Positions 8,373 through 54,966 of a stretch of 64,000 nucleotides of DNA are shown here, one piece after another. The position numbers and the translations under genes were made by a program. Within the stretch, counting starts at the first letter, position 1. Each line of letters starts with the position of its first letter. Under the pieces are notes generated by a model. The model was not told the DNA's origin, did no database searches, and worked only from the letters and a program-made list of their open reading frames with translations. Source of the DNA: a virus (taxonomy: Duplodnaviria > Caudoviricetes); the IMG/VR virus record IMGVR_UViG_2700988794_000001, positions 32,001 to 96,000 of that record; one strand, written 5' to 3'.

Positions 8373-8407
8373 AGCCGTTTGATCTGCCCTGATCAAACGG
8401 CTTTTTT
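8373..8407 (+). terminator. Intrinsic terminator
   Basis: AGCCGTTTGATC-tgccct-GATCAAACGGCT-TTTTT. Confidence 0.85.
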
Positions 8408-8418
8408 CATTTTAGGTG

Positions 8419-8447
8419 TTGACAAAGGATCGTTCCCAAGTTAGACA
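8419..8447 (+). promoter_or_regulatory. Conserved phage sigma70-type promoter
   Basis: TTGACA-AAGGATCGTTCCCAAGT-TAGACA. Confidence 0.8.
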
Positions 8448-8499
8448 TATGGATGGCTACCACGAGCCACCACGAAACCTTAAACGGAGAGCACTGACA

Positions 8500-10173
8500 A
8501 TGGTCGGAGCACAGCTTACAAACGAACAGGCGGTTGTTCGAAATGCGGACGGGTTCCGCTCGAAACTCGCCATCCTCGATAAGGCCGCAGTCGGCGTTAT
8601 CCTCTGCCGCACCCGCGAGCCCTATCGCGCCCTGGACACCATCAAGGACTACGCATTCGGCGAAGACGTTGAATGCCGCCTCTGGACGGTCCTGTATGGT
8701 TGGGCCAAGTACAACAAGGCCGACCCGACCGCTGCGCCCCAGGTGGACAACCTGAAGGAAATCAACGGCGCTCTGATGGCCATCGGCGACATTGCTGGCA
8801 GCACGACCGGCTTCCCGAACGGCTTCTACGCCATGATGTACGCTCACTTCTGGCTGAAGCCGGGCCAAGCCAACCCGGTGACGATCCAGATCATCAAGGA
8901 ATATTGCCGCCTCTTCACGCAGAACGAAAAGCGCCTGATCCTTCTCGCGCCGCTCGGCTACAGCCTTCCGCAGGAACTGGAAGAAGACGTTCTGATCCTG
9001 GACTTCGACACGCCGTCGCACGCCGAGATGGGCGACATTTACGACGTGGTCATGGAAGGCTTCGGCGACAAGAAGCCGAACTTCAACAAGGACGCCAAGA
9101 ACCGCACGCTTGCGGCGGCGGCTGGCATGTCGCAGCAGGAGTTCGAAACCTCGCTGTCACGCGCCGTGGTCACGCACCGCAAGCATCTGCCGAATGTCGA
9201 TCCGGACCTGATTATCGGCGAGGTCATGCAGTCCAAGGTGGAAGTCGTCAAGCGCTCGGAAGTGCTGGAGGTGATGGAAGCCACCAACATGTCGAACGTC
9301 GGCGGTCTCGAAAACCTGAAGGAATGGTTGCGCAAGCGTGCTCCCACCTTCGGCGAGGATGCCAAGAAGTTTGGTATCGATGCACCCAAGGGCATGGCCC
9401 TGATCGGCCCTCCTGGTACGGGTAAGTCACTTTGCGCCAAGGCGACCGCCAACTTGCTCGGCTTGCCGTTGATCAAGTTTGACATCAGCCGCGTGTTCCA
9501 GTCGCTTGTCGGTCAGTCCGAGGAGCGTGTCCGGGCGGCGCTGAAGATGCTCGATGCCATGGCACCCTGTGTCGTCATGCTAGATGAAGTGGACAAGGCC
9601 TTTCAGATGGGCTCTGGCGGCGACAGCGGCGTCTCTCAGCGCATCTTGGGTCTTATCCTGACCCACATGCAGGAGACCCACGCTCCGCTCTTCTGGGTGG
9701 CGTCGGCGAACCGCGTCGATAACCTGCCTTCCGAGTTCCTTCGGCGCGGACGCCTGGACGAGGTGTTCTCTGTCTCGGTTCCGGAAGACGATGAACGGCT
9801 CGACATCATCAAAATCCATCTGCGCAAGCGCGGCCAAGACCCGGACAAGATCAAAGACCTGGACGTGGCAGTGCAGAAGTCGAACGGCTACGTTCCCGCA
9901 GAGTTGGAAGCGGCAGTCAAGGACGCCTTGATCGACGCCTTCAGCGACAACATTCCTGTGACCGGCGAACTGATCGGCAAGCAGCTTGGCAACATGAAGC
10001 CGCTGTCTGTCGCCTTCGCGGAACAGTTCCAGCGCATGACCGAGTGGGCGGATAACAACGCACGCCCGGCGTCGAAGTCCAAGGAGGAGAAGGTTGCCGT
10101 CCGTGCCCGGTCAAGAACCGCACCGGCAGTGGCTTCCTCCGGCAAACGTGCAGGTATGTCACTGGACAGCTAA
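8500..10173 (+). CDS. Ycf46-like AAA+ ATPase
   Basis: VGGLENLKEWL, GPPGTGKS Walker A, MLDEVDK Walker B, ASAN, LRRGRLDE Arg finger; inactive N-terminal AAA-like half. Confidence 0.88.
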   Translation: MVGAQLTNEQAVVRNADGFRSKLAILDKAAVGVILCRTREPYRALDTIKDYAFGEDVECRLWTVLYGWAKYNKADPTAAPQVDNLKEINGALMAIGDIAGSTTGFPNGFYAMMYAHFWLKPGQANPVTIQIIKEYCRLFTQNEKRLILLAPLGYSLPQELEEDVLILDFDTPSHAEMGDIYDVVMEGFGDKKPNFNKDAKNRTLAAAAGMSQQEFETSLSRAVVTHRKHLPNVDPDLIIGEVMQSKVEVVKRSEVLEVMEATNMSNVGGLENLKEWLRKRAPTFGEDAKKFGIDAPKGMALIGPPGTGKSLCAKATANLLGLPLIKFDISRVFQSLVGQSEERVRAALKMLDAMAPCVVMLDEVDKAFQMGSGGDSGVSQRILGLILTHMQETHAPLFWVASANRVDNLPSEFLRRGRLDEVFSVSVPEDDERLDIIKIHLRKRGQDPDKIKDLDVAVQKSNGYVPAELEAAVKDALIDAFSDNIPVTGELIGKQLGNMKPLSVAFAEQFQRMTEWADNNARPASKSKEEKVAVRARSRTAPAVASSGKRAGMSLDS

Positions 10174-10195
10174 GTCTGCCACGTGATATAAAGGG

Positions 10196-10306
10196 CTTGC
10201 TCGGCGCATCCGTTCGCCGGGCAAGGATGAGCGGGGCCGGTTCGTGGTTCCTTCATCCCGCAACCGGGAGGGTTTGAGGTGGTTCTCCGCCCTCCCGGCA
10301 TCCTTT
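10196..10306 (+). ncRNA. Putative three-hairpin sRNA with anti-RBS loops
   Basis: Stems 10196-206/10215-225, 10231-235/10257-261, 10264-272/10290-298, then U-rich tail; upstream TGGACA..TGnTATAAA; loops CGTGGTTCCTT and GGTGGTTCTCCG. Confidence 0.6.
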
Positions 10307-10356
10307 TGCAACATGTTGCATTAAGGCTTGACAAAGGAACGGTGCCAAGTTAAATT
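10307..10356 (+). promoter_or_regulatory. Palindrome + conserved promoter
   Basis: TGCAACATGTTGCA, then TTGACAAAGGAACGG..TAAATT. Confidence 0.8.
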
Positions 10357-10385
10357 CCTATTGTGAACCACCACGGAGAACCACA

Positions 10386-11024
10386 ATGCTCATTTCCGCA
10401 ATCACTGGCGACCAGAACTTCCCGAACGGCAGCGCGAAGCTGCATCTCTTTTTCGTCCCGACGCGGCAGCGCATGGGGCAGGAGGTTCATATTGGTCAGC
10501 TTGCCCGAGGCGTCAACCCAGACGTTCCCTGCTCTGCCACCAACATCCGCCGCTTCAATGCGATGAATGGCGCTCCCGAAACCCTTGGGAAGTGGACGCA
10601 GGCCAACTACGATGTCCCAGAGGGTGTCGTGCTCAAGCTCTTCGGCACCCGGCGCACCTCCATCCAGGGGCAGAACATCGGGTCCGCCTCCGCAGTCATC
10701 TATGTCCAGGCGCGCTCGAATGCGGCGCTGACAAGCATCGACTTCAGCCTTATCCCTAACGACCGTTCGCCGATCACGCGGGCAGAGTTGCAGGGTAGGT
10801 TCGACATTCTCACAGGTGCGGAACTCGCACAGCTTGGCGTCTCCATGAACCAACAGACGCTGATGTCCATGAGCGAGCGCAACGTGAGCCGGGTATTCGC
10901 GTTGAGAACCCTTGAACGGCAGCTTCAGGCAAAGCAGACCGTCCGGACCACCACCGTGAATAATTCTGATGGCGAAGCTGTCGTCATTCAGAAGCAGGTA
11001 GCAAGGCGTGCCGTCAAGCTCTGA
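10386..11024 (+). CDS. Hypothetical protein in the AAA+ module
   Basis: 212 aa, GGAGAACCAC RBS, ends RRAVKL. Confidence 0.75.
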   Translation: MLISAITGDQNFPNGSAKLHLFFVPTRQRMGQEVHIGQLARGVNPDVPCSATNIRRFNAMNGAPETLGKWTQANYDVPEGVVLKLFGTRRTSIQGQNIGSASAVIYVQARSNAALTSIDFSLIPNDRSPITRAELQGRFDILTGAELAQLGVSMNQQTLMSMSERNVSRVFALRTLERQLQAKQTVRTTTVNNSDGEAVVIQKQVARRAVKL

Positions 11025-11033
11025 ACATAGGCC

Positions 11034-11062
11034 TTGACAAAGGATTGGGGTTAAGTTAGATT
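11034..11062 (+). promoter_or_regulatory. Conserved promoter
   Basis: TTGACAAAGGATTGGGGTTAAGTTAGATT. Confidence 0.8.
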
Positions 11063-11102
11063 AGTCATAGTGGAATTGACCACGAAGGAAAGGAACCACG
11101 GA

Positions 11103-11546
11103 ATGTCTCATACCACCACACTGAAGGGCGTCCAGATCAAGGACATCGCCGCGCTTCGCGCAGCGGTCGCTGAACTCATCACCCAGGGCGTCAACTGCGC
11201 TCTCCTGGAGAACGCCAAGCCGCGCATGTTCTACGCGAGCCAGCACACCAACTGCGATTACGTCCTGAACCTGAAGGACAGCCAGTACGACGTTGGCTTC
11301 GACAAGCAGAAGGACGGCTCCTACGCTCCGGTGTTTGACGAATGGTCCAACCACGTCTCGGCGAAGATCGGCGCTTCCTGCCCGCTGCCGACCACGGCGG
11401 AAGGCAAAGCCCAGCACCAGATCGGCAAGCTGCTTCAGTCCTACCAGAAGCACGTCGCCATCAACGCCGCCGTCATGTCCGGCTACTCTGTCGAGAGCGC
11501 CGACTACGACAAGGAAGGCAACCTCCAACTCGTGATCAACGCGTAA
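11103..11546 (+). CDS. DUF1257/Ycf35-like protein
   Basis: MSH.T....I.D..AL..A..EL, YDVGF.KQ.DG.Y..V.DEW, LLQ.Y pattern. Confidence 0.75.
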   Translation: MSHTTTLKGVQIKDIAALRAAVAELITQGVNCALLENAKPRMFYASQHTNCDYVLNLKDSQYDVGFDKQKDGSYAPVFDEWSNHVSAKIGASCPLPTTAEGKAQHQIGKLLQSYQKHVAINAAVMSGYSVESADYDKEGNLQLVINA

Positions 11547-11600
11547 GGGCTCCGGCCCTTACCGCCCACCCTCGAAACACAGAAACGGAAAGCAACTCCA

Positions 11601-11819
11601 ATGAGCATGAAGCAGATCAAGGTCACCATCGATCCCATCGGCAACTCCAAGGTCGAAGCAATCGGCTACAACGGCGTCGGCTGCGAAGCCGCCACGAAGA
11701 CGGTCGAAGACGCGTTGGCCGGTGGCAAGGGCGGTGTTGACCGCGTCATGAAGCCGGAATGGTCGAACCCGAACACCGAAGAGCAGACCCAGCAGCAGGG
11801 CATCCCGACCTGGGGCTAA
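11601..11819 (+). CDS. DUF2997-like protein
   Basis: I.VTIDP.G...VEA.GY.G.GC..AT..VE.AL.G....R..KPE. Confidence 0.8.
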   Translation: MSMKQIKVTIDPIGNSKVEAIGYNGVGCEAATKTVEDALAGGKGGVDRVMKPEWSNPNTEEQTQQQGIPTWG

Positions 11820-11827
11820 GACGATCC

Positions 11828-11945
11828 GCGAGGGGCTGGCAACGGCCCCATCGCTTCCAAGGTGAAGCCAGCCTCCTCTCATAGCCGCCGCATCATATGA
11901 GAGTGACACTTAAACCCTTCCTCGTGGGGTTTGGCTGGCTTCTCC
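11828..11945 (+). ncRNA. Structured intergenic RNA (GCAA-tetraloop hairpin + three-way junction)
   Basis: GAAGCCAGCC/GGCTGGCTTC outer stem enclosing CTCTCATA/TATGAGAG and AAACCC/GGGTTT. Confidence 0.45.
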
Positions 11946-11971
11946 CTGCAAGCGAAGAGGAGAACCACCCT

Positions 11972-12340
11972 ATGCAGCAAGTCATCACAATCCAGCCGGA
12001 CGGCACCATGTCCGGCCTCCAGGTCAAGCCCGGCAAGGGCATCGACCTCACCAAGCTCGGAAAGGCCCACGTGGTCCGGGCTTCGGAAATCCTCTGGCAT
12101 GAAGAGAAGCAACTCTGGTATGTCAGCCTCCTGAATGAAGAGCGCCAGATGGACGGCCTCTTCGGAACGCTGACCTGGGATATGTGGACAGATGCCGGTC
12201 TCGACCACGAGCAGCTTCCAGCGGCCACCACCTTCTCGGTAGTCCGTGACAACCTCGCTATGTTCTTCCCGGACTATGACAGGGCAGTAATAGCGGAGAT
12301 TGCATACCTCGACGCCATGCGTCTGAAGGGCATCTTCTAA
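11972..12340 (+). CDS. Small protein of the type accompanying DUF2997/DUF1257 modules
   Basis: I.I.PDG, DL..LG...V.RAS.I.W, F..Y..A..AEI.YL; GGAGAACCACC RBS. Confidence 0.7.
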   Translation: MQQVITIQPDGTMSGLQVKPGKGIDLTKLGKAHVVRASEILWHEEKQLWYVSLLNEERQMDGLFGTLTWDMWTDAGLDHEQLPAATTFSVVRDNLAMFFPDYDRAVIAEIAYLDAMRLKGIF

Positions 12341-12526
12341 GACATCCGCCCTGCCGTGCAACCCGTTGCATTGCAGGGCTTTTTAGCGTCTAGTGGTAAG
12401 GAGGCGACACACCTACAAGATGTAGTAGGCTTGACATGTAGGCCCGTTAGGGCTTATGAATACCCCTCGATCCGGCCAGGGCACCTAGCAAGGTATCCGG
12501 ATCAAGTCGCACCCAAAGGAATAACA

Positions 12527-15797: not shown

Positions 15798-18624
15798 TGC
15801 CAGCTATGCGACCACGCCATGTGCAGCTTGAAGAAAAACGACCGGTGCAACAAGTTGCAGGCGCTACCCACATGCGTCGGGCGGAGGAAGGCGGTCGCCA
15901 CACCTTCAGCTTCGGACCCTACGACCACCCGGTAACCGATGAGAAGTGCGGCGACATCCTGGTTGTATGCGATGCGCAGAATTGGGATGCTCAGCGTTGG
16001 GGCTACCCGATGCATCCCGATAGCATGAGGATGTTCGCCAAAGCCGCAGAGAAGGCTGGAGTTCCTGACGGCAAGATCACCTTCCTCGGCCTCTGCCCGC
16101 CCGTGCCGACCCAGGACATCAAGTCCGCCGCCCGCACCTGGAAGCACGTCGAGAAGTTCGTGCCCGGCGTCATCGAGTACATCAATCAGCAGAAGCCGAA
16201 GGTCGTCGTCACCCTTGGCGCGCTCGCCAGCCGTGCCGTCTTCGACCGTTCCGTGTCGATCACCAAGGCCCGTGGCGTCCTCGTGCAGCCGCACCCCCAC
16301 CGCCCTCACGTCTTCCCGATGCTGTCGCCCGGCTTCATTGCCCGCGTCCCGGAACACCAGAAGACTTTCGAAGGCGACATTGGCACGCTCTCGAAGTTCG
16401 TACATGCCGGGTTCGATCCGAATGGCATCATGACGATGGAGACCGACTACCAGTGGTGCTACGATCTCCAGTTCATGATCGACAACCCGCCACAGGCCCT
16501 TGCCGTTGACACAGAAGGCACAGGGCTGCGTTGGCACCAGGACAGCACTCGGAACCTCACCGTACAGCTATCCCCTCGCCCAGGCGTCTCCTATATCATC
16601 CCCGTGGACGAAGCCTATGTGATGAAGTGGGCGAAGTTCTTCCCACCTCGGCTTGCCGGTCGCTTGGCCGGTTGCGCGAGCAGTTGAAGCAAATTCTGGA
16701 AAACCCCGACATCCAGAAGATGGGCCACAACATCAAGTTCGACCATATGATGATCCGCAAGATGGGCATCAATATGCAGAACGTCAAACACGATACGCAA
16801 ATGATGGCGTTCGGTGTTGACGAGAACATGATGTCCAAGACCCTGGACGATTGCGTCCGCGTCTGGGTTCCGCAGATGTCCGGCTATGCCGACGACTTCA
16901 ACACGCACGTTGACAAGAACAGGATGTTCGACGTGCCACCCGAAGACATCCTGGACGAAAACGGCAAGGTCATCCAGTACGGCATGCGCCGATACGCAGG
17001 CGGCGATACCGATGCCACCTTCCGGCTTGCCCGCGCCCTCTATCCGTTGCTTCGGCGCGAGCCCAGCCAGTGGAACATCTACGAGCGCATCCATATGCCC
17101 GCCCTGATGGCCTTCGCTAATCGCCTGGAGCGGTATGGCATGGTTATCGACCAGGAAGCGCTACGCAAGCTCTCTGGCGACGTGAAGGCATGGCTGAAGG
17201 ACGAGTTCCGGGCGCTGATCCGTATGGTGCCTCCTGCCGTCCGCCGCAAGCATCTCGAAGCCGGTCTCAAGTTCTCCCGTGACCAGTTCGTCCGTGATAT
17301 CCTCTTCAGCGAAGACGGCTTCAACCTCAAGCCCCAGGTCTTCACCAAGTCCACCGAAGACCTTTCGGATGAGACCAAGCGCGTGCCGTCCGTCTCGACC
17401 AAGGATCACATGCCCTACTTCGTGACCCGCAAGGACACGGCAGGGCAGTTCGTCACCCGTCTGATCGAGTACCAAAAGACCTCGAAGATGGATAGCACGT
17501 ATTGTGGCAACGAAGAGGAAAGGACCGGGTTCTGGCAATACCTGAATAGCAGCAGCCGCATCTTCCCATCCTTCGCGCTGCACAAGACCAACACAGGCCG
17601 CACCGCATCTAGCGATCCGAACGGCCAGAACTATCCGAAGCGTGGTCAGTGGGCCAAACCGTTCCTGAAGGTCTTCAAGCCCAACCCAGGCTACCGCTTC
17701 GTCGCCGCCGACTTGTCGCAGATCGAACTGCGCATCGCTGCCTGGGAAAGCGGCGATGAAACAATGCTTGACATTTATCGCAATGACGGCGATATTCACA
17801 TGATGACAGCGGCAGCAACTATGCGCCTCTCTGTCGAAGAATTCCTACAACAAGAACCTGCCATCCGTAAGTTTAAACGCTTCGCCGCTAAAGCTGTGAA
17901 TTTCGGCTTCGTTTACGGAATGGGTGCAAAAGGCTTCCGGACCTACGCTAAGACGCAGTACGGCGTGGATTACTCCGAGCGTGAAGCCTACGAGACCCGC
18001 GAACTGTTCTTTGCCACCTACCGGCAACTCATCGCATGGCACGAACGTCGCAAGACCGAAGCACGTCGCCAGGGCTTTGTGTCCTCGCTGCACGGCGCTA
18101 TCCGTCACCTGCCGTCGATCTACTCCAGCGACCAGGGCGTGGCGGCTATGGCAGAACGGCAGGCCGTCAACGCGCCTGTCCAGCGCTTCGGCTCCGACCT
18201 CGGCGTCATGGCCCTAACCCGTCTCTCATGGCAGGCAGACCCGGAAATCATGCGCCCGGTCGGCTTCGTCCATGACCAAGTCATCTGTGAGGCCAAGATC
18301 GGCCACGAACTGGAAGCGGCCAACGCCCTGGTATGGGCTATGGAAAACCCGCTGCTCGAAGAGTGGTTTGGCATCACCGCGCCGCTGCCGATCAAGGCCG
18401 AGCCGGATATCGGCGACACCCTCGGCACCACCCTCGAACTGAACGAAATGCCGAAGAACGAAGACGGCTCTCTGAAGGTTCCCGACTGGTGGAGCGAGAC
18501 TGGCATCGAGTGCGTCAACGTCAACGGCACATGGAAGGCCCCGTTCGCCCCGGCCAAGCCCACATGGTGGAACGACAATGAGGCAGAAGCGCAGGAGCAG
18601 TTCACCCGCTTCCTCCACGTTTAA
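15797..18624 (+). CDS. Family A DNA polymerase with N-terminal UDG-like domain and 3'-5' exonuclease; frameshift near 16668
   Basis: KPKVVVTLGA.A, AVDTEGTGL, GHNIKFD, YAGGDTD, TGRTAS.DPNGQN, ADLSQIELR, AKAVNFGFVYG, FVHDQ. Confidence 0.93.
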
Positions 18625-18680: not shown

Positions 18681-18734
18681 GCTTACAGGATCAAAGGAAC
18701 CGATCCTTCTGGAACCGCAACCGAGGAGTTTTTC

Positions 18735-19148
18735 ATGCCCCGTACAGCCCGCGCCGTCAACCTCAGCACCGAACTGACGGCTGACGAAAAAGAACAACAG
18801 ATGAAGGCCAAGCTGGCGAAAATCCGCCAGTACGCCAAGGCCGAGAGCAAGGCCCGCTCCGACAAGGACAAGCTCTTGCGTCAGCTTGAAAAAGAGATGA
18901 CGGCGGCTGGAAAGCGCAAGCTCGAAGTCTTTTACGACAACGAGACCATCATCGGCGAGATCGGCACTGGCGACCCGCGCAACGTCGTGGACACTGCCCT
19001 GCTCGCTTCCAAGATCACACATGCTCAGTTCGTGTCCATCGCCACCGTCGCTGGCGGCGCGGTCAAGGAAGCCTTCGGCACCGGCATCCTCAATCAGGTG
19101 CTTGTCGAAAAGGAAGGCGAGCGCAAGCTTCGCGTCGAGGTCGCGTAA
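18735..19148 (+). CDS. Hypothetical protein
   Basis: 137 aa with GAGGAG RBS. Confidence 0.7.
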   Translation: MPRTARAVNLSTELTADEKEQQMKAKLAKIRQYAKAESKARSDKDKLLRQLEKEMTAAGKRKLEVFYDNETIIGEIGTGDPRNVVDTALLASKITHAQFVSIATVAGGAVKEAFGTGILNQVLVEKEGERKLRVEVA

Positions 19149-25805: not shown

Positions 25806-26171
25806 ATGGCCCTCGCAACTCCCAAGCGGCTGCAAGCGCCGACACCCTCACATGCCCGCTCCAAGGTGCAGGAGAAGACGCAAGCCAAGCGCGTCGGCGG
25901 CAAGGTCACTACCGGCTCTGGCAACAAATATGAGAAGGGCGATGTCCGACTGAAAGGTGTCGCCCGGATCGAAGCCAAGACCACGAAGAACTCCAGCTAC
26001 AGCGTCACCAAAGAGACGATCCGCAAGCTGGAAGACGCGTGCTTCGGAGCGGGGGAAATCCCGATCCTCCACGTCGAGCTTGAGCTTGGCAACTGCAAGT
26101 TTGTCGTCATGCCAGATTATGCCCTGGACATGGTTCTGGACGTACTGAGGGAAAAGAATGGCACTGCTTAG
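25806..26171 (+). CDS. PD-(D/E)xK nuclease, Holliday-junction-resolvase-like
   Basis: QEK..AK..GG..T.GSG....KGDV......IEAKTT. Confidence 0.7.
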   Translation: MALATPKRLQAPTPSHARSKVQEKTQAKRVGGKVTTGSGNKYEKGDVRLKGVARIEAKTTKNSSYSVTKETIRKLEDACFGAGEIPILHVELELGNCKFVVMPDYALDMVLDVLREKNGTA

Positions 26172-29282: not shown

Positions 29283-29310
29283 ATAAACATCGAAACGGAG
29301 AACCACCGCA

Positions 29311-29901
29311 ATGAACACCCCCACTACTGCAAAGCATCTCCAGGGCGTAATGCACCTCCTCCCGGCCAAGGACCAGTCCTTCGCGAAGAGCCTGATCAGC
29401 GCCCGTAACCCGACCGAGAAGCAACTCTTCTGGATCGGCAAGCTGTTCGACCGCGCCGTAGGTGCCGAGTGCAAGCCGGAGCGCGAGACCGCCACGGTCG
29501 GCGACATGGCTGGCATCAACGCAATGTTCGACCGCATCGGCAAGACCAAGCTCCGCCGCCCGGCTATCGTGCTCCACACCGACTACTGCGGAGATGTCCG
29601 CCTCAACGTCGCCGGTCCCGGTGCCCAGGTGCCCGGCTCGATCAACGTGGTCGCTGTCGATGGCGGACAGTGGTTCGGTCGCGTCACCAAGTCTGGCGTG
29701 TTCGAGAAGTCCTTCAAGCATGAGACGCCCGACAGTGTCGTGGACATCCTCCGCGAGTTCGCCGCCGAGCCCCTGGAGGTTGCGGCTCGCCACGGCAAGC
29801 TGACAGGCCGCTGCTGCTTCTGCAACCACGGTCTGAAAGACCCGAAGTCCACCGCCCGTGGCTACGGCCCTATTTGTGCTCGTGCCTGGGTTGGGGCGTA
29901 A
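29311..29901 (+). CDS. DUF6011-like Zn-finger protein
   Basis: HGKLTGRCCFC...L.DP.S..RGYGPICA. Confidence 0.7.
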   Translation: MNTPTTAKHLQGVMHLLPAKDQSFAKSLISARNPTEKQLFWIGKLFDRAVGAECKPERETATVGDMAGINAMFDRIGKTKLRRPAIVLHTDYCGDVRLNVAGPGAQVPGSINVVAVDGGQWFGRVTKSGVFEKSFKHETPDSVVDILREFAAEPLEVAARHGKLTGRCCFCNHGLKDPKSTARGYGPICARAWVGA

Positions 29902-30019: not shown

Positions 30020-32433
30020 ATGAGTACCGAAGCGGCAACGTATCGCCAGTTCGCGCCCGGCATGGGCCAAGCAGTAGCAGAGCGGACCATTCTCCGCAAA
30101 ATTCTCAAGGATGGTATCGAACTTCCGAGCCTTCTCTCGGTTCACCCCAAAGACCCAGATCGTGGTCATATCATCCGCATCTGCCAGGAACGTGGCATCG
30201 GCTTCGCTCTCGACCCGGAACAAGAAATCCGCTTCGCGAACTACCTGGAATGGGAGAATTGGGCCACGTCGCCGACCGCGTATCGCACGGCAACTCCCTT
30301 CTTGACCCTCGTGGCTCAGTCCACCGTGCAGACGAATTCTTCTCGATGCTGCACCATCTCCGCCAAGCTTCGATCCTGATGTCCGGTCGCCACCTTCAGC
30401 ACGGCGACGAAAATCAGCCCACCCGCAACATGGAAGTCTTCACCAACTGCTCCACGGCGGCAACTACCTTCCTCCTCTTCTATCTCCTCCTCAATGGTTC
30501 TGGCGTCGGTCGCTCATACGATGACGCCATGATCAAGGCCGACCTCAACTTCATGCCCATCGTCGTGCCGACCATCGAATGGTCACACCCAGATGCAGCA
30601 AGCGGCGCGGTCACCGGCTTCCTCACGAAGCGCGATGCCGAGCATCTCTATGCCGGTCGCAAGATCACCGTCTTCAACGTCCCTGATGACCGCGAAGGAT
30701 GGGCCAAGGCAATCGAGAAGATCGAAGTCATGGCTCGCCAGAAGCGCCGCGAGGAAGTGCTGATCCTGGAGTTCTCTGGCGTCCGCGAGAAGGTCGCCCG
30801 ATCATGGGCATGCAGGTCGCCCGGCTTCCGGTCCCGGCCCGCTGATGTCCGCCATCGCCAACATCGCCAAGCTTCGTGACGCAGGCATGGAACCGTGGCG
30901 CGCTACCATGTACGCCGACCACTACGCCGCCGAGTGCGTGCTCGTGGGTGGTGCCCGCCGTGCCGCTCGCATGGCTACCAAGCACTGGAAAGACAAGACC
31001 ATCTTCGGCTTCATCGAACTGAAGCGTGGTGGGTTCCTCTGGTCTTCGAACAACTCCATCGCCATTGACGATGAGTTCCGCCAGCGCGTGACGAAGGTGG
31101 TCAACCTGATCGGCTCCCAGGACGTTCCTGGTTCTGTCGGTTACGCAACGATCCTCCGTTGCTCTGGTCAGATCGATGAGTGGGACTTGCATGCCTATAA
31201 GGTTCTCTGCGAACTGGCGAAGGCTGCGTACCACGACAAGACCGGCGAGCCGGCCTGATCAACGTGGACAAGCTCACCCACAAGAACGACGGCATTCAGG
31301 CATACGTTGACGGCCTCTACGCCGAGGGCAACAAGTACGCTCCCGACGAAGACGCTCGCCAGCTTATGATCGACATCGCCGAGGTGGTGCTGGGTCTCAG
31401 CTACACGATGATCACCAATCCGTGTGGCGAGATTTGTTTGCTACTCTTAGGTGCATACTGTGTCATCGCCGACGTGGTGCCCTTCCATGCGCAGAACGAT
31501 GACGACGCCGAAGACGCCTTCCGCACCGCCGTCCGTGCCCTCATCCGTACCAACCTCATGGACTGCCTCTATAACCGCGAGGTGTCGCGCACCAACCGCA
31601 TCGGCGTCGGCATCACCGGGTTCCATGAATGGGCCTATGCCCGCTTCGGCTTCACGTGGCACGATCTCGTGGACGAGGAGAAGTCCAAGGAACTCTGGAT
31701 GACGCTTGCCCGGTTCAAGCGCGCCATTGACGACGAAGCCCAGACCTATTCGAAGGTGCTTGGCGTCACCGTCCCGCACACCAACACGACGTTCAAGCCC
31801 GCAGGCACAACGTCCAAGCTGTTCGGCCTCACTGAAGGCGCACACCTTCCGTCGATGCGCGAATACCTTCGCTGGGTGCAGTTCCGCCACGACGACCCGC
31901 TCGTGCAGCAGTACGAAGAACGCGGCTACCCGATCATGCACCTGAAGAGCTACGAGGGAACCACAGTTGTAGGCTTCCCGACAAGGCCGACCATCTGCGA
32001 TCTCGGAAGCTCGGAATGGGTGGTCACCGCCGCCGAGGCAACGCCGGAAGACCAGTACCAGTTCCTCCGCAACCTGGAGAAATACTGGATACACGGCGTG
32101 GACGAAGACGGTGCCCCGCTTCCCGGCGAAACTGGCAATCAGGTCAGCTACACCCTGAAGTACGATCCGGAAGTCGTGACGTTCGAGCAGTTCTTCCACA
32201 CCCTGATCGAAGGTCAGTTCTCCATCCGTTGCTGCTCTGTCATGCCGCAGGCCGACACGTCCGCCTACGAGTACCAGCCGGAGACGCCTGTCTCGAAGCA
32301 TGAGTTCGAGATGATCGCCGAGCAAATCGCTGAAGCCGGTCGCATGGATGAAGACATCGGCAAGGAGCATATCGACTGCTCGACGGGCGCTTGCCCTGTT
32401 GACTTCGTGGCCGATGAGAAAGAGGATGCATGA
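30020..32433 (+). CDS. nrdJ: Class II (B12-dependent) ribonucleotide reductase; four apparent G-deletion frameshifts
   Basis: FTNC, GSGVG, VGGARRAA, TNPCGEI, RIGVGITG, TTFKPAGTTS, C-terminal CSTGACP. Confidence 0.88.
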
Positions 32434-33383: not shown

Positions 33384-33987
33384 GCGCGAAGCCAACCATC
33401 AAGTTCGAGACCTCGATCCAGCAGAAGGGCAAGATCGCCCTGGTCCCGGTCATTCACCAGCCTTCATCGTCCTGATGGATAGCCTCTACCCGACCCTCGT
33501 CTCCGGCTCGACCGAACGCAAGGGTGAAGGCTTCAGCGCCTTCCGGGTGGACGGTGACATGCCGGAGTTCATCGGCTCGTTCACTGGCATGTGCCTCGCT
33601 TCGGTGCGCAAGAACCCGTGGTTCGAGGATGACCAGCAGTGGTTCCTTCGCGCCTTGCTGGCAGGCATGAGCCTCAAGGGCTTCCAGGAGGATCACCGCT
33701 CCCGCTGCCACCCACACAACTATGGAACGCTCCGCCTCTGGGATAAGTTAGGCCTGGGAGCCAAGCGCACGACCCGTGGCGACTACATCAGCGTGACCCG
33801 CGATGAAGCCAGCCATGAGATGCTCCGGCTCGCCATGCGCGTCTGCAAGGAAGGCTACGGCGATATCCGCGCCTACGCAGAGAAGAAGATGACGGCGATC
33901 ACGGAAGAGCAGCTTGACAAGATCATGCCCTGCCCGACACTCGCCTTCCACGTCAATGCCGTCCGCGTGGACTGCTCCTTGACTTAG
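33380..33987 (+). CDS. Hypothetical protein, possible GNAT-like fold; frameshift near 33458
   Basis: CHPHNYGTLRLWDKLG resembles GNAT motif B (N..S.RL..KLG). Confidence 0.35.
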
Positions 33988-37903: not shown

Positions 37904-37931
37904 TATACGTGTAGAATAACGGAGAACCACC

Positions 37932-38225
37932 ATGCTCACCAAGAGCCAGAAAATCTTCTACAAGCAAGTCGGCTATTACACCACCGCTGGCGTAGGCAGT
38001 GCCTTGTTCGTCGGCATGGTGATCGGCGGGCTGTTCGCCATCCTGATCAACCTGACATCCTGGAATGAAGTGGACGCCACGGACAAGAGCGCAAGCCAGC
38101 GTTCCGGCGTCAGACTGGTCAACGACTACGGCAACGGATGCCAATACCTCATGAGCAAAGAAGGCCATCTCACCCCTCGTATGGGCGTGGACGGCAAGCA
38201 GATATGCAATGGAGAAAAGAAGTGA
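37932..38225 (+). CDS. Small membrane protein
   Basis: TM helix, D.TD....RSG..L..D...GCQYL.....LTPR. Confidence 0.7.
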   Translation: MLTKSQKIFYKQVGYYTTAGVGSALFVGMVIGGLFAILINLTSWNEVDATDKSASQRSGVRLVNDYGNGCQYLMSKEGHLTPRMGVDGKQICNGEKK

Positions 38226-39983: not shown

Positions 39984-40021
39984 ATAAGCATCGAAGCAAA
40001 CAAGCCAACCGGAGAACCACC

Positions 40022-40414
40022 ATGGCACGCAAGATCAAAGTTACCGCCTCTGAACTCCAGCGCTCGAAGCAGAGCCTGAACTACGGCCAGATCGAAATGG
40101 CCAAGCTGTTCACCTCTGAAGACGCGGTCACCAAGGTTCACGCAGACGGCACGGTCGAACGTCTGAACCGCGCGACCATGGAGCAGATCGGCTACTTCCT
40201 CAAGGGCAAGCGCGCCGTTGACGGTGTAGAGATCATGGAAGAACTGAACAAGGATTGCATCGCGCTCCTGGTACAGGGCGGCTACGTCAAGGCCGAGAAG
40301 CGTTGCAAGAGCGCAAAGCATGACATGTACTGGATCACCGCCAAGGCGGCTGAGCGTTTCAACCTGAAGCCGGTCACCTCGTTCGGCCTGCCCTTCAAAT
40401 TCCTGGAGGCGTAA
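40022..40414 (+). CDS. Hypothetical early protein
   Basis: GGAGAACCACC-ATG. Confidence 0.75.
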   Translation: MARKIKVTASELQRSKQSLNYGQIEMAKLFTSEDAVTKVHADGTVERLNRATMEQIGYFLKGKRAVDGVEIMEELNKDCIALLVQGGYVKAEKRCKSAKHDMYWITAKAAERFNLKPVTSFGLPFKFLEA

Positions 40415-41575: not shown

Positions 41576-41977
41576 TCAACCACGGCAACTCAGGAGAACC
41601 ACCATGGCCGTCGTCAAGTACAACGCAGAGACCAACAAGCATGACGTGATCATCTTCGGCGCGGACACCGTGTCGTTCGATCACGAAGACGAGGCGGAAG
41701 GCTTCGCAGAGTTCGTCAATGGAGGCGACAATGACTGAGAACGAATACCTGATCGCCCGGTCCCGCAAGTACACCGTGGTGGAGGTTCTCCTCTTCCTGG
41801 GGATCGCGGTCACCCTGTTCTTCCTCGGCTGGCAGAAGGTCGCCATCTGTTTTCTGATTTGGGCCTGCTTGTCCCTGATCACCCACCACAGACGCGTGAA
41901 GCGTTACTACTACATCGACTAACCCACAGGGGAGGGCTTCGCGGCTCTCCTCTGCAACTTGTTGCATGGAGGCAACC

Positions 41978-43335: not shown

Positions 43336-43790
43336 ATGACGACCATGAGCCACTGGACAGAGAAGATGAACGAGGCGGAAGCAGCCGCCAGTGCCGCATG
43401 GGAACGCATGCAACAGGCCCGCAAGGATGGCAACCGCCGCGCCGAGAACAAGGCATGGCGGGAGCACTCCAAGCACAAGGATGCCGCCAGCCGCTTCCGC
43501 GCCTTCGCCAACCCCATGGAGGTTAGCGCCTCCGGTTTCGCATCGTAAGGAGAACCACCATGGCAGAGAAGCACAGCAACCTGATCGACCGCCGCGCCAC
43601 ACAGGAAGCCAAGGTAGGCATCTGCCAGTTGGCAGGCAAGCAGTGGGTCGAACTCCTTGACCCGGCAACGAAGGCACCTTACCGCTTCGCAGACAAGAAG
43701 ACCTGCATGAAGACGGTCACCCGCCTCGTGCTCAAGGGCACGCACAACATCATGCCTTTCAACGCATCGACCGGCGAACTGCTCGGCTAA
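43336..43790 (+). other. Two small hypothetical genes (43336..43548, 43560..43790)
   Basis: RBSs GGAG and GGAGAACCACC. Confidence 0.65.
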
Positions 43791-44021: not shown

Positions 44022-44086
44022 GGTGGTTCTCCGTTGTTTGCCTGATCATATTGCCCTAGCGCCTCGCCGATCTCAAACGGTTTGTT

Positions 44087-45355: not shown

Positions 45356-45381
45356 ATAAGCATCAAAGGAGAACCACGCCA

Positions 45382-47729
45382 ATGAACACCACCTTCGCCC
45401 TGATCGCCTTCCTCGCCCTCAACCCTGCCGAACCGCAGGAGATGGACGCCTTCAAGATCGACTACGCCATGAGCGAGCAGGATTGCTACGAGGCAGTCAA
45501 GCACGTGCAGCGCTTCGAGATCGCTCCCGGCGTCACTGCCGTCATCCAGCCCGAGAACCTCTCATGCGAGGAGGAGTACAAGTGAGCGAGATAATCCTGA
45601 AGGTGAGCATCACCCTGTCCGATGAGCCTAGCCCGGACGAGCGTCGGGATGTCGAGCATTACATCGCCATGGCGCTGAAGAGCGTAGAGGGCATGCGTCC
45701 TACCCGGCGCGCGCCCCTCACCATCAATCGCGCTTTCATCGTGGAGGAAGAGAAGTGAGCATCGCCGCCATCATCGCAGCCGCTGCCGCATCCACGCAGA
45801 TGCAGATCATGCATCAGGAGCAGTTGCACCAAGCCGCCGCCTTCCTGTTGCGCCCGCAGCCCACGCGCTTGTCAGTGAGCAACGTCGATACCAGGAAGGC
45901 CGATCCTTCTATCCCGGCCCCTACGGAGTGGAAGCCATGAACACCGCCCTCCTCAAACTGGCAAGCGTTCGACGCCAAGGGTATCGCCGCTGGGACGTGC
46001 CCGGCAAGGCTGACAGATACGTCGCCTTCAAGTACACCACGCTCTACGCCAGCGGCAAGGCACGTGAGCGCTGGCTGGTCTGGCATATCCATCCGCACCA
46101 TAGTGGCAGTGGCGGCATCCATGTTGACTACTCGCAAAGGCACTATGCCGAGGCGCTGGATAAGGCGCTGACATGGGTAGGCCGTGCGTTCGATCCTGCC
46201 CGCGCAGTAGGAAGGAAGAAGCCATGACCCTGAAACTGTCCAAGCATATTCTCGATAGCGAGAAGAAAACCGAGGTCGCTATCAACGAGCTTGCTACGTG
46301 GCTCTACGAGAACAGTGCGGCCTTCGATGAGCCGGGCACGGTAAGCACGCAGTCTGCAAGGGCGCTGGCGGAACGCATGATAGAGGAGGCAAGCCGTGAG
46401 AAGCATCCGTCTCGATGACGCCCGGCGCACAGAGAGCCCTACCGAAAAGGTGATGATGTTCACCTGCCCGGAGCGCGACTTCATTGAGGGCATGGAGAGT
46501 GCCTGGAAGCTCGGCTACCTCGCAGGCGGCGGCAAGGATACGTTCGTGGATGTAGCATGGGGCATGTCAGAGATGCGTGCGCTCCTGATCGCCAGAGGAT
46601 ACGAAGCGTGAAACATGTTGCACGGCGAAACGTCCGCCTCGACGGGGAGCGCCAGCGGCCAGCCCCTGTACGCTACTACCAGTGCTCCGGCTGCAACCGG
46701 CGCTGCGATGATCCAGTATATGACTTGGATATGATCCGGGAAGCAGGGTGTATATCGTGCTGCCCTGAACGCAAGATGAAGCTATACGTCGATCACAAAC
46801 TGGTGAAGAAGTAGCCATGAGAAAAGTACGCCTGGAAGAACCGAAGCCGCCGTCCGAGACCACCATCGTCACGCTGTCTGTCCCGGCAGGCATCGACGTG
46901 GCCGATCTGGTCCGGCGCTACAACGAGCAGTGCGAAGCCAATGGCCTGCCGCCGATCCTCGACGCCAAGCTGGTGGATATCGAGAAGGCCAGATGGCCTG
47001 CCGCCTACCATGAGTACCGCGAGCGCCTGGAATACCTCAACCGTGGCAAGAAGCCCTCCACGCCCTTGACCATGGAGGTGTTCGGCACCAAGCTACAGCA
47101 GATTATGGAGCGCACCGGATGGCCTGCCAGTTCTGCCACCGGCCTGATCCTCATACAGGAGCACCCAGACATTGCCTAAGAGACATGTTCGCCTGGACGA
47201 TCAGCGCCAGAAGCCCAAAGTCAAAGAGACCAAGCTGAAGATCACGCCCCTATCCGACCTCACCCGAGAGGAGCTTGTCGAGCGTTGGGCTGGCATCAAT
47301 CGTATGAGCGTGGACATCGAGAGCATCGACTATGCATCGCTCATCCGACCCTCGGGCGCTGCCATCACTCCGGCCAGGGTACGCAACAGCATGATAGTCA
47401 ACACTGACGAGGGCGCTGTCTTTCGCTTGGAACTAGACGGCAACCCTATAGAGCTAACGCGAGATGTCATAGGCGGAAACCGCAGATCGGCACAGATCGG
47501 CAGGGACTACGGCATAGGCGGGTACGACACCGCCGAAAGCGGCTTCCTGCAAAGGGCACAGGAGATGACTACGCCGCGTCCTCCTGAAGCTCAGCGCGCC
47601 CGGCCTCCCTTTCCCGGCTGGTCAAACTGGTATCTCTCCCACACCGACGAAGACGGCAACCGCCATGAGGTCAGGGTGCATAACACCTCGGGCAACACAG
47701 AGCGCCGCGTGATCAGACGCATCCCTTGA
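45382..47729 (+). other. Operon of nine small genes (starts 45382, 45582, 45755, 45937, 46224, 46396, 46608, 46817, 47172)
   Basis: Overlapping starts and stops; last four begin with an R-x-[VI]-R-L-[DE] motif. Confidence 0.65.
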
Positions 47730-47785: not shown

Positions 47786-47815
47786 TGATCATTGCCAACC
47801 AAGGGGAGAACCGCC

Positions 47816-48978
47816 ATGGCAGACGAAAGCTACATTGTCCTCTACCGCCTTGGCGGATGGGCCACTTGCGAGTGGAGACGCACCGCCAACATCATTGGCA
47901 CCCTGGAGCGCGCCGAGGCTGAAGTCGCCTCGTTGGAGCGCATGGGCTTCAAGGCCATTTACCGCACCCAGGCGGAGCACGACTTGATCGGCTTCCCGCT
48001 CGGCTGGCACTGGAAGGTCGTAGACCACGCCATGGACACCATCAACATCACCCCGTGGGAGAGCCAGCACAGCATCCACCCGTCGCGCTTCGAAGAAGTC
48101 CGTGCCCTGGTCGAGAGGGAGCGCCTGAAGTGAGAAGCTTCCAGGAGAGCAAAGACGCCATGCTGCACCACCTCGACGGCGCAGGCGAGCTTGGCTGGAT
48201 ATTCTCGCGGCTCTCCGCCTATGAGAAGGAAGTGGCGCATGCGCTCATCTCCGAGGGGCTGGCAGTGATCGCCAACAGTCGTCTTGTGCTGACAGAGGAA
48301 GGAAAGGAGCACCTGAAGTGAAGCCAGCCGTAGGTCAACAGGTCAGAGGGCGCTTGCCCTTCATCACGGGCATCAAAACCTGTGTCATCGTCGCCCGGCG
48401 CGTACCCAAGGAAGGCGAGTACGCCATGAGCAGGGACGGTTCGTTCTTCCGGCGGCAGGGCAGCAAGTTCCTCTCTAAGGTGGACGCCGCCCGCGAATAC
48501 TGGATCATAGAGGAAGTGAAATGACCCGAGAGCAACTCGAAGCCATGCGCAAGAGCGTCGAGACCAGCTTCCACTTCCATACGCGAGCCAAGGACAAGGC
48601 CGAGTATGATCGGAAGATGAACCGCAACGACAGTAGCCCGGAACGCGACATGCACCAGACGGTGGCCTGTGTCTGCAACGTGTTGCACAAGGCGCTTGTC
48701 GCCGCCATCAACGTCACGGCTGACGACAAATGAAGCGGCATGTCCGCCTAGACGACAACAAGCCCCGCCAGGGCAAGCGTAGGCCCCAGAGCGACTATGA
48801 GGCCTACCTGGGGCGGATATGCGGCTGCATGCACCCGAACGCACACCCGCCCTGCTCCGGCTGCACGAGCGCCATTGACGAAGAGCAGTTCGAAAAGGAA
48901 ATGGCCGAGGAACTGGCAGACTGCCTGTCCACCTATAGGGCCATAAGTCATATCATCGAGAGGCACCATGACTACTAA
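47816..48978 (+). other. Small hypothetical genes (starts 47816, 48130, 48318, 48521, 48730)
   Basis: Coupled GTGA/ATGA junctions. Confidence 0.6.
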
Positions 48979-53407: not shown

Positions 53408-53431
53408 ACATCATTGAATAGGAGAACCACC

Positions 53432-54966
53432 ATGCTCATGAAACTCGTTGTCGAGAGCACTAAAAAGGTAGACTACGGCACCCAAAAGGCCGAGATCACC
53501 TTCAAGGGCAGTTCGCCAGAAGGCGTGGCGCGCGCCGTCGAGCGCTACTTGCGCGACCTCGGCATGAACGGCCCGTCCTACTCCTACACCCTTGAGCAAC
53601 TGGTGGATAAGCGGTGAGCAGGCATACGTGGCAAGAACTGGTGGCTCCGCACGTCCGGCGCTTCACCGTAGCGGCCAAGTTCGGCGGCTCGGCGTCCTGG
53701 AATGCAGAGGGCTCCGCTGCCATGGCAGAACTGCTCTCCACCATGGCCAAGATCATTGACGAAGAAGTGCTCGCCCGGTCGCATGAGGGCGTTGCCCAGG
53801 CCGAAGCCCGCGCTCTCGGCAATAAGGCCGCACAGAAGCTCGTAGAGGCCCTAGAGAGGGATATGCGGCGCATGCACGGCATCATACCGCCGGAATACAA
53901 GCTCGTCGCCAAGCTCTACAAGGCGCACAGGAGGGGCAAGTGAACAGACGCGTCCGGCTGGCAGACAGAGCGCCGAAGTCCTTCAAAGAGAGGATGATCC
54001 AGGCCGCAAAGGAAGGCGAGGAGCTTCGCCGGGCAAAGGTCGTCAAGAAGTTATGGCGGCTCTCCCAGAGGGACCGGTCGGAGTACGACACTTATGACCG
54101 CGCCGTCGTGGTTGCCGTCAACGAAGACATGGCCAGACGGATACATCCGAACAATCCGGCAGCAGCGGATTATGATTGGAGCAAAGACGACACATGGGCT
54201 CGCTCTCCAGAGCACGTGACCGTCAAGTACCTCGGCATATGTGAAGACGACAGTTATGATCTGGGAGATGTCGTCTGTGAGAGTTTTAACGCAGGCTGAA
54301 AGGAGCCAAAATGAGTACGCATATCATGCATTACGTTGTCTGGGGCGTGAAGCTTCCCGACTTCGACCACGATGAGCAGGAGGAGCTTATCGACAAGTAC
54401 AAGTCCGACCGGTATTCCCGCAAGAAGACCAAGCAGGACAACGCGGTCGATGATATCTCGCTGGTCTGCTCCGGCATGGACGACTTCGAGTATTTCGCCG
54501 GGCACGTCGCCCGCATGGCCGATGGCTACGATGGCGAGGGCATCGACTACATCAGCCTGCCCGCGATCCCCGAGAAGGCAGACGAGTGGATGCAGGCCAC
54601 ATTCCGGCTCTGTGAAAAGCTCGGCCTGCCAAAGCCCGCCGGATACGATTTCGGCTGGCACGTTTTCACGCAGTGGACTTAACCGGCGAGGAGCCAACCA
54701 TGAAAGAGTACCTGTTCTACATCGCGGAAGAAGATGAAACCAAAGGCACGCCCGTGCTGATCGTCTCCCGCGAATATTGGGAAGCGGAACACGCCATCGA
54801 AAGCGTGCACCTCTTTGACGACCTCCAGGATCGTCTTCCCGAGTGCATCAGCGATGAGCTTGCCGAAAGCATGTTCGTCTCTGACAAGGGCCGCGATGAC
54901 ACCAAGGCCGACATGGAAGCCGCTGGTTTCATCTGGGAACCGGCACTGGCCAACGCGGGTCAATAA
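53432..54966 (+). other. Operon of small hypothetical genes (starts 53432, 53614, 53940, 54311, 54700)
   Basis: RBS-preceded tandem ORFs. Confidence 0.65.

Follow-up and report, generated by a model that had tools for sequence, protein, structure and literature searches.

The c4 antisense RNA of the phages P1 and P7 carries complementary sequences in its loops that pair around ribosome-binding sites (RBSs) and block translation (PMC12197685). Here we analyze an element of about 105 nt (positions 10196-10298, + strand) that would be nearest to c4 in mechanism, a phage RNA with loop words antisense to RBSs. An AAA-ATPase gene precedes it and the next promoter follows it in a 64,000-nt stretch of Caudoviricetes DNA, which we call the window (bases 32001-96000 of virus record IMGVR_UViG_2700988794_000001; record 109,558 bp, 59% G+C). 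The c4 RNA is processed from a transcript that also carries its targets and sets two loop sequences against two sites, an arrangement resembled by the pair of GUGGUUC words in the element and the pair of GAACCAC words in the adjacent gene's leader. In contrast, c4 belongs to a temperate immunity system and acts within one operon, whereas the word found here is common to 14-17 genes. No integrase is annotated among the 168 products of Rhizobium phage RHph_I4 (MN988552, 108 kb), the sole close named relative. Our data support a conserved, structured non-coding + strand element with a predicted exposed loop, in its third hairpin, antisense to the phage's commonest RBS word. This observation is real and well above chance, and the initial annotation of the DNA, which had interpreted the element as a phage small RNA (sRNA) silencing early genes together, is partly supported.

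Antisense control of single phage genes has long been known (c4, sar, OOP), and multi-target sRNAs of phages and satellites are emerging. Nearest in logic is RegA of phage T4, a phage protein that attaches to numerous phage mRNAs at their translation initiation regions and turns them all off at once; the factor proposed here would be a base-pairing RNA instead of a protein. Alphaproteobacterial anti-Shine-Dalgarno (anti-SD) sRNAs such as AbcR1/2 and CcsR ('cuckoo' RNAs) are host-encoded and use repeated hairpin-loop seeds to pair with the SD of several mRNAs. Their loops are C/U-rich anti-SD words, whereas the seed of our element covers SD plus spacer (AACCACC) and would provide phage-specific addressing. 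The element matches no covariance model of Rfam, including those for c4-type RNAs (family C4) and alphaproteobacterial anti-SD sRNAs. No Rfam family reached its gathering score across the window, and a search of 10100-10420 at E up to 10 gave two chance matches to unrelated families. SviR of the PLE satellite is a trans-acting sRNA that lowers the translation of several phage genes (bioRxiv 10.1101/2022.04.08.487710); SviR differs in being satellite-encoded and directed against phage ICP1, and is not a means for a phage to control its own genes via a common RBS. CisR is a host sRNA derived from a 3' untranslated region (3'UTR) that acts on the cep mRNA of the filamentous phage CTX-phi (PMC13250501). 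It shares with our element the location at the 3' end of a coding transcript and an action on other mRNAs, and differs in being host-encoded. A full-text literature search, with subscription journals and supplements outside its scope, turned up no RNA by which a virulent phage reaches a large number of its own genes via a single RBS word.

A three-hairpin element in three phage homologs

The + strand of the virus record carries nearly all genes. At the locus under study the AAA-ATPase gene is followed by the element, by a gene for a 212-aa protein and by the DUF1257 and DUF2997 genes. RHph_I4 is about 80% identical to the window across 8400-12400 (73.5% in the intergenic stretch) and carries the same set of AAA-ATPase, DUF1257 and DUF2997 genes (window 8500-11820) at the homologous locus, where its record annotates coding sequences (CDS) only. 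The third homolog, L014, is a 1523-bp metagenome contig that we reached by scanning metagenome contigs for the pattern of the promoter module described below. It shows the order ATPase end, element, palindrome, promoter, 212-aa homolog (45% identity), promoter and DUF1257. Comparisons of the element cover these three homologs.

Positions 10193-10305 fold into three hairpins with a minimum free energy (MFE) of -61.9 kcal/mol (z -3.98), and none of 200 shuffles was equally stable. The MFE is -67.8 kcal/mol in RHph_I4 (z -2.87) and -70.2 kcal/mol in L014 (z -4.65). The opposite strand folds less stably by 9-11 kcal/mol in all three (-51.1 kcal/mol in the window, -58.4 in RHph_I4, -61.3 in L014), in keeping with the G.U pairs and with an RNA read from the + strand. 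When folded hairpin by hairpin, every homolog shows the same three hairpins, which agrees with the three hairpins initially proposed; in the whole-element MFE structure of RHph_I4, hairpin 2 is paired differently. Hairpin 1 (10196-10225) consists of 11 bp and an 8-nt loop and is present in all three homologs with differing stem and loop sequences. Hairpin 2 (10225-10258) combines a 7-bp outer stem with a G.U-rich inner stem of 7 bp, whose 3' arm contains CGUGGUUCCUU (10243-10253), and its blocks GAGCGGGGCC and UCGUGGUUC are unchanged between the window and RHph_I4. Hairpin 3 (10264-10298) stands on an invariant 5-bp base (CCGGG/CCCGG) and carries GGUGGUUCUCCG (10278-10289) at its apex; its variable upper stem is unrelated among the three phages and is lengthened in RHph_I4 by insertions on both arms. 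Anchored at the base, 11 pairs of hairpin 3 can be compared, six of them identical and five changed on both sides, and RNAalifold on a MAFFT alignment finds compensatory changes at 3 of 12 pairs. MAFFT aligned hairpins 1 and 2 poorly and not consistently with their structure, and the base-anchored pair counts of these two hairpins, inflated by register shifts, were not relied on. Because only three sequences are compared, these data describe conservation of structure and do not amount to a statistical covariation test.

The element does not look like a gene for a protein. There is no + strand open reading frame (ORF) of at least 30 aa in 10187-10362 and no conserved ORF, and the gaps between the homologs (1, 3, 6, 5 and 1 nt) are not multiples of three overall. 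We considered and rejected a small-protein gene (a possible micro-ORF opening at the (A/G)UG of hairpin 2 would be 16 or 7 codons long or run on open-ended, with an SD-like word directly adjoining its start codon), a gene on the minus strand for which the antisense copy would serve as RBS (the first ATG comes only 21 nt later, and the SD has lost its GG in RHph_I4), and a tRNA or tmRNA (none found).

The hairpin-3 loop is antisense to a shared RBS word

The exact reverse complement of GGAGAACCACC occupies 10278-10288 in the apical part of hairpin 3, where the initial annotation had placed an antisense loop. The sequence GUGGUU(C) is retained in this apical region in all three homologs, and opening GUGGUU costs a computed 0.95 kcal/mol in the window, 0.89 in RHph_I4 and 0.26 in L014. 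An exposed seed complementary to translation initiation regions is thereby predicted in each of them. Hairpin 2 of the window carries CGTGGTTCCTT (10243-10253), an exact complement of AAGGAACCACG (11090-11100), the RBS word of the DUF1257 gene. This complementarity had been noted before and stands, whereas its assignment to a loop does not: in the MFE structure the word forms the 3' arm of the weak inner stem with three G.U pairs, at an opening cost of 4.9-6.2 kcal/mol. In the window and RHph_I4, the GUGGUUC within it (GUGGUUU in L014) pairs with a conserved GGGGCC block; opening it costs 4.9-5.2 kcal/mol in these two and 2.7 kcal/mol in L014.

Elsewhere in the window, two GTGGTTC words 21 nt apart (33618-33645) also occur in RHph_I4. 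We rejected this pair, at 33618 and 33639, as a second element: it is coding (Trp-Phe codons) and unstructured (z -0.56), and its occurrence is probably a coincidence.

Allowing up to one mismatch, GGAGAACCACC occurs 13 times in the window, compared with 1.15 copies expected and at most 5 in any of 100 shuffles. Nine of the 13 copies are exact, seven of them before a start codon on the + strand and one on the - strand, the ninth being the antisense copy in hairpin 3. An ATG follows within 0-3 nt in 11 of the 12 matches outside the element, the exception being 41781(-). Across the whole genome GGAGAACCAC is found in 11 copies on the + strand and two on the - strand, one of these lying in the element and the other forming the RBS of the sole minus-strand gene; the + strand of RHph_I4 has 16. 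In RHph_I4, GAACCAC is the top 7-mer at positions -22..-1 of the starts (16 of 167 plus-strand starts, with the single minus-strand CDS excluded), and these account for 16 of its 27 + strand copies. The RBS word is common to about a tenth of the phage's genes, and the number of genes sharing it is put at 14-17.

The coordinates given initially for these sites were right. Exact 11-mers on the + strand lie at 11959-11969 (gene 11972-12340), 29297-29307 (gene 29311-29901, DUF6011), 37921-37931 (gene 37932-38225), 40011-40021 (gene 40022-40414), 41593-41603 (gene 41604-41738), 43549-43559 (gene 43560-43790) and 53421-53431 (gene 53432-53617), and the minus-strand copy at 44022-44032 precedes gene 44021-43821. 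A copy with one mismatch is found at 45368-45378 (gene 45382-45585), and the copy at 47805-47815 (gene 47816-48133) has an A-to-G change that keeps pairing as G.U. The words at 29297, 37921, 40011, 45368, 47805 and 53421 stand behind a promoter, while those at 41593 and 43549 have none before them. The statement that most of these genes are the first behind conserved promoters proved correct, with 11 of 14 GGAGAACC[AG]C sites in this 109,558-bp genome and 13 of 17 in RHph_I4 located 1-90 nt behind a TTG[AC]CAAAGGA core. Seen from the promoters, 11 of 27 in this genome and 13 of 26 in RHph_I4 carry the word. It is retained between orthologous genes, and three A-to-G differences (GAACCGCC) would still pair as G.U; this retention is weak evidence because the whole leaders are 75-88% identical. 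A scan of 10 target proteins returned no known function, and calling the targets 'early genes' is an assumption.

Two leaders of RHph_I4 are of interest in their own right. The annotated start of EVC24_148 (record position 100715) falls within a promoter module, and a GGAGAACCACC word at 100725 suggests that the real start lies a few bases further on. The leader of EVC24_044 (record 25887-25913) carries GTGGTTCT 8 nt upstream of its own RBS AGAACCAC, and these words would form a local hairpin hiding the RBS; the ortholog in the present genome lacks such a leader hairpin.

Complementarity to the adjacent leaders and across the genome

The 212-aa gene (10386-11024, +) is the predicted adjacent target. 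Its leader (10363-10385, +) contains two GAACCAC words (10365 and 10378) spaced 13 nt apart, the second being the RBS, and the last 27 nt up to and including the ATG are identical in RHph_I4. The protein has homologs in RHph_I4 (79%) and L014 (45%) only, tblastn against phages matched RHph_I4 alone, and no Pfam or PHROG family was assigned. The DUF1257 gene (11103-11546, +; PF06868, E 4.8e-09) has its own promoter at 11034-11062.

In the window the hairpin-3 loop is antisense to (C)GGAGAACCACC, with flanks that extend the pairing to 11-13 nt. In RHph_I4 the loop is antisense to GAGAACCACCAUG, start codon included, if two wobbles are allowed, and 10 nt of the 212-aa leader match it exactly as well. 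The sequences flanking the loop word have changed between the phages, yet they are antisense to the same consensus in a shifted register. We then compared duplexes of the apical segments with the leaders to those of 500 shuffles of the loop segment, counting the shuffles that did as well. With the 212-aa leader, the counts for hairpin 3 were 3/500 in the window and 0/500 in RHph_I4, and those for hairpin 2 were 101/500 and 10/500. With the DUF1257 leader, hairpin 2 gave 1/500 in the window, 24/500 in RHph_I4 and 4/500 in L014, and hairpin 3 gave 38/500, 69/500 and 9/500. Hairpin 2 of L014 reads GUGGUUUC, and the DUF1257 leader of this contig contains GAAACCAC and GGAACCAC, which match, at 8/8 positions each, the altered word of hairpin 2 and the word of hairpin 3. 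The DUF1257 leader is the sole target region complementary to the element in all three phages. Joint conservation of loop and RBS in relatives had been made a test of the idea in the initial annotation; complementarity is present for the DUF1257 leader in three of three and for the 212-aa leader in two of three homologs, the siteless 212-aa leader of L014 breaking the pattern.

Ranking of translation starts, another check suggested at that time, also favoured starts over controls. The score sums a helix-based hybrid energy and the opening energies of both RNAs, and internal sites at +150 nt served as controls. In this genome, 114 starts with an RHph_I4 ortholog and a consistent start were ranked, leaving the motif genes 37932, 43560, 53432 and 44021(-) unscored. 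A total of -8 kcal/mol or lower was reached by 6 of 114 starts and by 0 of 114 internal controls, and the top predicted target was gene 41604-41738 (-12.0 kcal/mol). In RHph_I4, 10 of 166 starts compared with 0 of 167 controls reached -10 kcal/mol or lower (13 versus 1 at -8 kcal/mol or lower). A naive full-length duplex scan was discarded; it ignores intramolecular structure, and its best matches are GC-rich coding DNA. The leader of gene 18735 (window 18700-18735) contains GGAACCG..AACCG words that pair with the hairpin-2 apical segment, with a crude duplex of -31.3 kcal/mol hybrid and -12.7 kcal/mol net energy; a stricter helix scan gave only -4.3 kcal/mol.

Genomic context of the element

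The ATPase gene (8500-10173, +) lies in the ORF 8416-10173 and was given its start at 8500 by mapping to the RHph_I4 ortholog EVC24_084, an 'ATPase domain-containing protein' with 89% amino acid identity; tblastn matches are annotated as AAA-ATPase. Hairpin 1 begins 22 nt after the ATPase stop codon in the window and about 9 nt after it in L014, and a terminator scan found none between stop codon and hairpin 1. Because the stop codon lies 22 nt before hairpin 1, we place the element in the ATPase 3'UTR, and this arrangement suggests that it is transcribed at least in that form. Its position, on the same strand and downstream of a stop codon with no terminator called between, is that of 3'UTR-derived sRNAs.

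Outside the RNA element, the palindrome TGCAACATGTTGCA (10307-10320) forms the upstream part of the next promoter module. Near-matches to it number 18 in the window compared with 0.01 expected, and every relative retains it, Aeromonas phage HJ05 and Agrobacterium phage JP1 among them. The promoter of the 212-aa gene (10328-10356, +) is of the sigma-70 type (TTGACA-17-TAAATT, 10/12 matches) and is one of the 27 TTG[AC]CAAAGGA cores. This host-type module joins TTG[AC]CAAAGGA to a conserved spacer (..CGGTTC..) and a TAGATT-like -10 and occurs in 27 copies, with window positions that include 8419, 10328, 11034, 18652 and 27719, and in 26 copies in RHph_I4; the conserved spacer suggests an operator inside the promoter. 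The palindrome in the form TGCAACNNGTTGCA has 47 copies in the 109.6-kb genome (e.g. 5864, 18626, 29232, 39933, 53356), often just upstream of TTGACAAAGGA promoters and also within genes and right before start codons. A conserved DNA-binding regulator of the phage probably recognizes it.

HJ05 (44% identity in the ATPase) and JP1 are distant relatives that have, at the corresponding site behind the ATPase gene, a single ordinary terminator, a hairpin with a U-tract, and then the same palindrome, in JP1 in a variant form. Neither terminator has a GUGGUUC loop. In contrast, the element has three hairpins and a weak or absent U-tract. Because HJ05 and JP1 have one ordinary terminator there, the three-hairpin form would be an elaboration within the Rhizobium-phage clade. 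By tblastn, homologs of the AAA-ATPase are also present in Aeromonas, Agrobacterium, Rhodobacter, Pseudomonas and Mycobacterium phages. Scans of viral contigs for further relatives found none close and one distant ATPase (24% identity), and neither the genome-contig scans nor a second metagenome-contig scan, besides the one that yielded L014, gave a match. We discarded 61 viral-contig loci as chance matches, none of which has the palindrome or GTGGTT at the hairpin-3 position. A literature search on DUF1257 and DUF2997 yielded no function, and the one paper found to mention RHph_I4 treats Rhodobacter phages (PMC8601537). Several large genes (window 16531-18624, 31264-32433 and others) map to their RHph_I4 orthologs only from deep inside the protein, with offsets of 732 nt for DNA polymerase I, 1245 nt for ribonucleotide reductase and 1632 nt for a pectin-lyase-fold protein; frameshifts, inserted elements, assembly errors in the record or divergent N-termini are possible causes.

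Discussion

The analysis shows the structure with its conservation, and a complementarity in excess of shuffles and of internal sites; that the RNA accumulates, pairs in vivo and represses translation is what we infer. The reading we put forward, tentatively and at a little less than an even chance, is that the element acts as an antisense 3'UTR of the ATPase mRNA, pairing with ribosome-binding regions via its open hairpin-3 seed. At a minimum it would be made with the AAA-ATPase mRNA, as its 3'UTR; in this phage and RHph_I4 a short promoter of its own may also drive it, and the RNA would perhaps be processed. The open seed GUGGUU(C) would pair with the shared leader/RBS word GGAGAACCACC(AUG), hairpin 2 would offer a second, masked seed, and pairing with ribosome-binding regions would block binding of the 30S subunit. 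The leaders of the neighbouring 212-aa and DUF1257 genes would be the first, conserved targets, and the dozen or so other word-bearing genes could be reached in trans, giving a reach of 14-17 genes. The expected outcome would be translational repression, the default for such pairing.

Several observations weigh against this reading. The initial annotation had described a discrete primary sRNA with its own promoter and a U-rich end, and neither signal held up. The putative promoter (10163-10192, +) consists of TGGACA (10163-10168) inside the last ATPase codons, an 18-nt spacer and a TG-extended TATAAA (10184-10192). The consensus scan does not call this TGGACA-N18-TATAAA arrangement, and the 13-nt stretch with TG-TATAAA is shared by the window and RHph_I4 and absent from L014, which thus lacks the -10. 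At the other end, a short run of four T (10304-10307, +) begins 5 nt after the hairpin-3 stem and overlaps the palindrome of the next promoter. It is replaced by CCGCTTGC in RHph_I4 and by CCCTTGC in L014, so that neither relative has a U-tract after hairpin 3, and the scan calls no canonical terminator at 10264-10310 or in the RHph_I4 homolog. A stand-alone sRNA gene is therefore unsupported as a conserved feature, and because a canonical terminator is lacking, a discrete RNA would need processing. The plain terminator that alone fills this position in HJ05 and JP1 points the same way, as does the thin covariation among only three homologs, with none found by RNAalifold in hairpin 1 and no usable alignment of hairpin 2. 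The seed in hairpin 2 is predicted to be masked. In L014 the 212-aa leader has no site (489/500 shuffles did as well for hairpin 2 and 73/500 for hairpin 3), which means that the targets are not a fixed set. The net energies of pairing are predicted to be moderate (-6 to -15 kcal/mol), and several RBSs with the exact motif score poorly (gene 40022: -5.9 kcal/mol) because the mRNA itself is structured. Finally, the shared RBS could be kept merely as part of a duplicated promoter-leader cassette.

The hairpins might serve the ATPase transcript alone, ending or stabilizing it as a degenerate terminator or a block to exonucleases, with a loop complementarity that regulates nothing. The plain hairpin and U-tract, followed by the same palindrome, in HJ05 and JP1 would fit such a purely structural 3'UTR, as would the start of hairpin 1 about 9 nt past the stop codon in L014 and the lack of a conserved promoter; moreover, for a 110-nt element to match some RBS over 11 nt is no rare event (estimate ~0.09). 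We nevertheless consider this explanation rather unlikely, as it accounts neither for GUGGUU(C) in the hairpin-3 loop of three lineages despite changes in the stem, nor for a second copy in hairpin 2, nor for loop flanks antisense to the consensus in a shifted register, nor for L014 leaders that match its changed loops. The U-tract, too, is lost in two of three homologs, though other terminators of this phage, found before 7 of 27 promoters, keep T5-6. If the element were only the relic of a terminator, its conserved loops would still need explaining.

A decidedly less probable alternative restricts the pairing to cis. Phage T4 gene e follows such a logic. Because no terminator intervenes, read-through RNA from the ATPase gene would carry both the antisense and the sense words, and GUGGUUC would pair with GAACCAC of the downstream leader and hide the RBS, while transcripts from the promoter at 10328, which sits between the antisense and sense parts, would be free of the antisense part and be translated. 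Read-through is likely without a real terminator, and in the MFE structures of read-through RNA from the window and RHph_I4, as well as in the RHph_I4 centroid, the hairpin-2 word is paired to that of the leader. In the window, however, the centroid retains the local hairpins, and the cost of opening RBS and AUG rises by just 1-3 kcal/mol (from 4.7 to 5.7-7.7 in the window and from 4.75 to 5.9-6.4 in RHph_I4) in these nested folds, a model outside which loop-loop kissing falls. L014 shows no such pairing and its 212-aa leader is siteless, and pairing in cis leaves unexplained why the loop matches a word common to 14-17 scattered genes. Finally, the conserved loops could bind a protein or another RNA unrelated to RBSs, or the word could act at the DNA level. 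The block GAGCGGGGCC of hairpin 2, which corresponds to no RBS sequence, is likewise identical in the window and RHph_I4, and this phage abounds in other DNA signals, the 47 palindromes among them. We regard this as very unlikely, given that the strand bias in stability and the G.U pairs point to a + strand RNA, that GAACCAC clusters at starts, which hold 16 of its 27 + strand copies in RHph_I4, that the loop-word flanks follow the RBS consensus and that no Rfam family matches.

Returning to the antisense 3'UTR, its most far-reaching form would be a virulent phage that has placed one extended RBS 'address' on about a tenth of its genes, mostly the first behind host-type promoters, and silences this set together by a single 3'UTR-released RNA with two seed hairpins. 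In this extent we hold it to be doubtful. The idea is directly testable because RHph_I4 and its host strain (Rhizobium phaseoli N771) are in culture collections. If true, an RBS 'address' combined with one antisense loop would provide a design rule for synthetic circuits. For the phage itself, it would mean a new layout for the temporal control of gene expression, in which one RNA addresses at least a dozen of its own genes through their RBS word: an RNA doing what RegA of T4 does as a protein, and a viral regulon, directed at the phage itself, in which loop and RBS would co-evolve.

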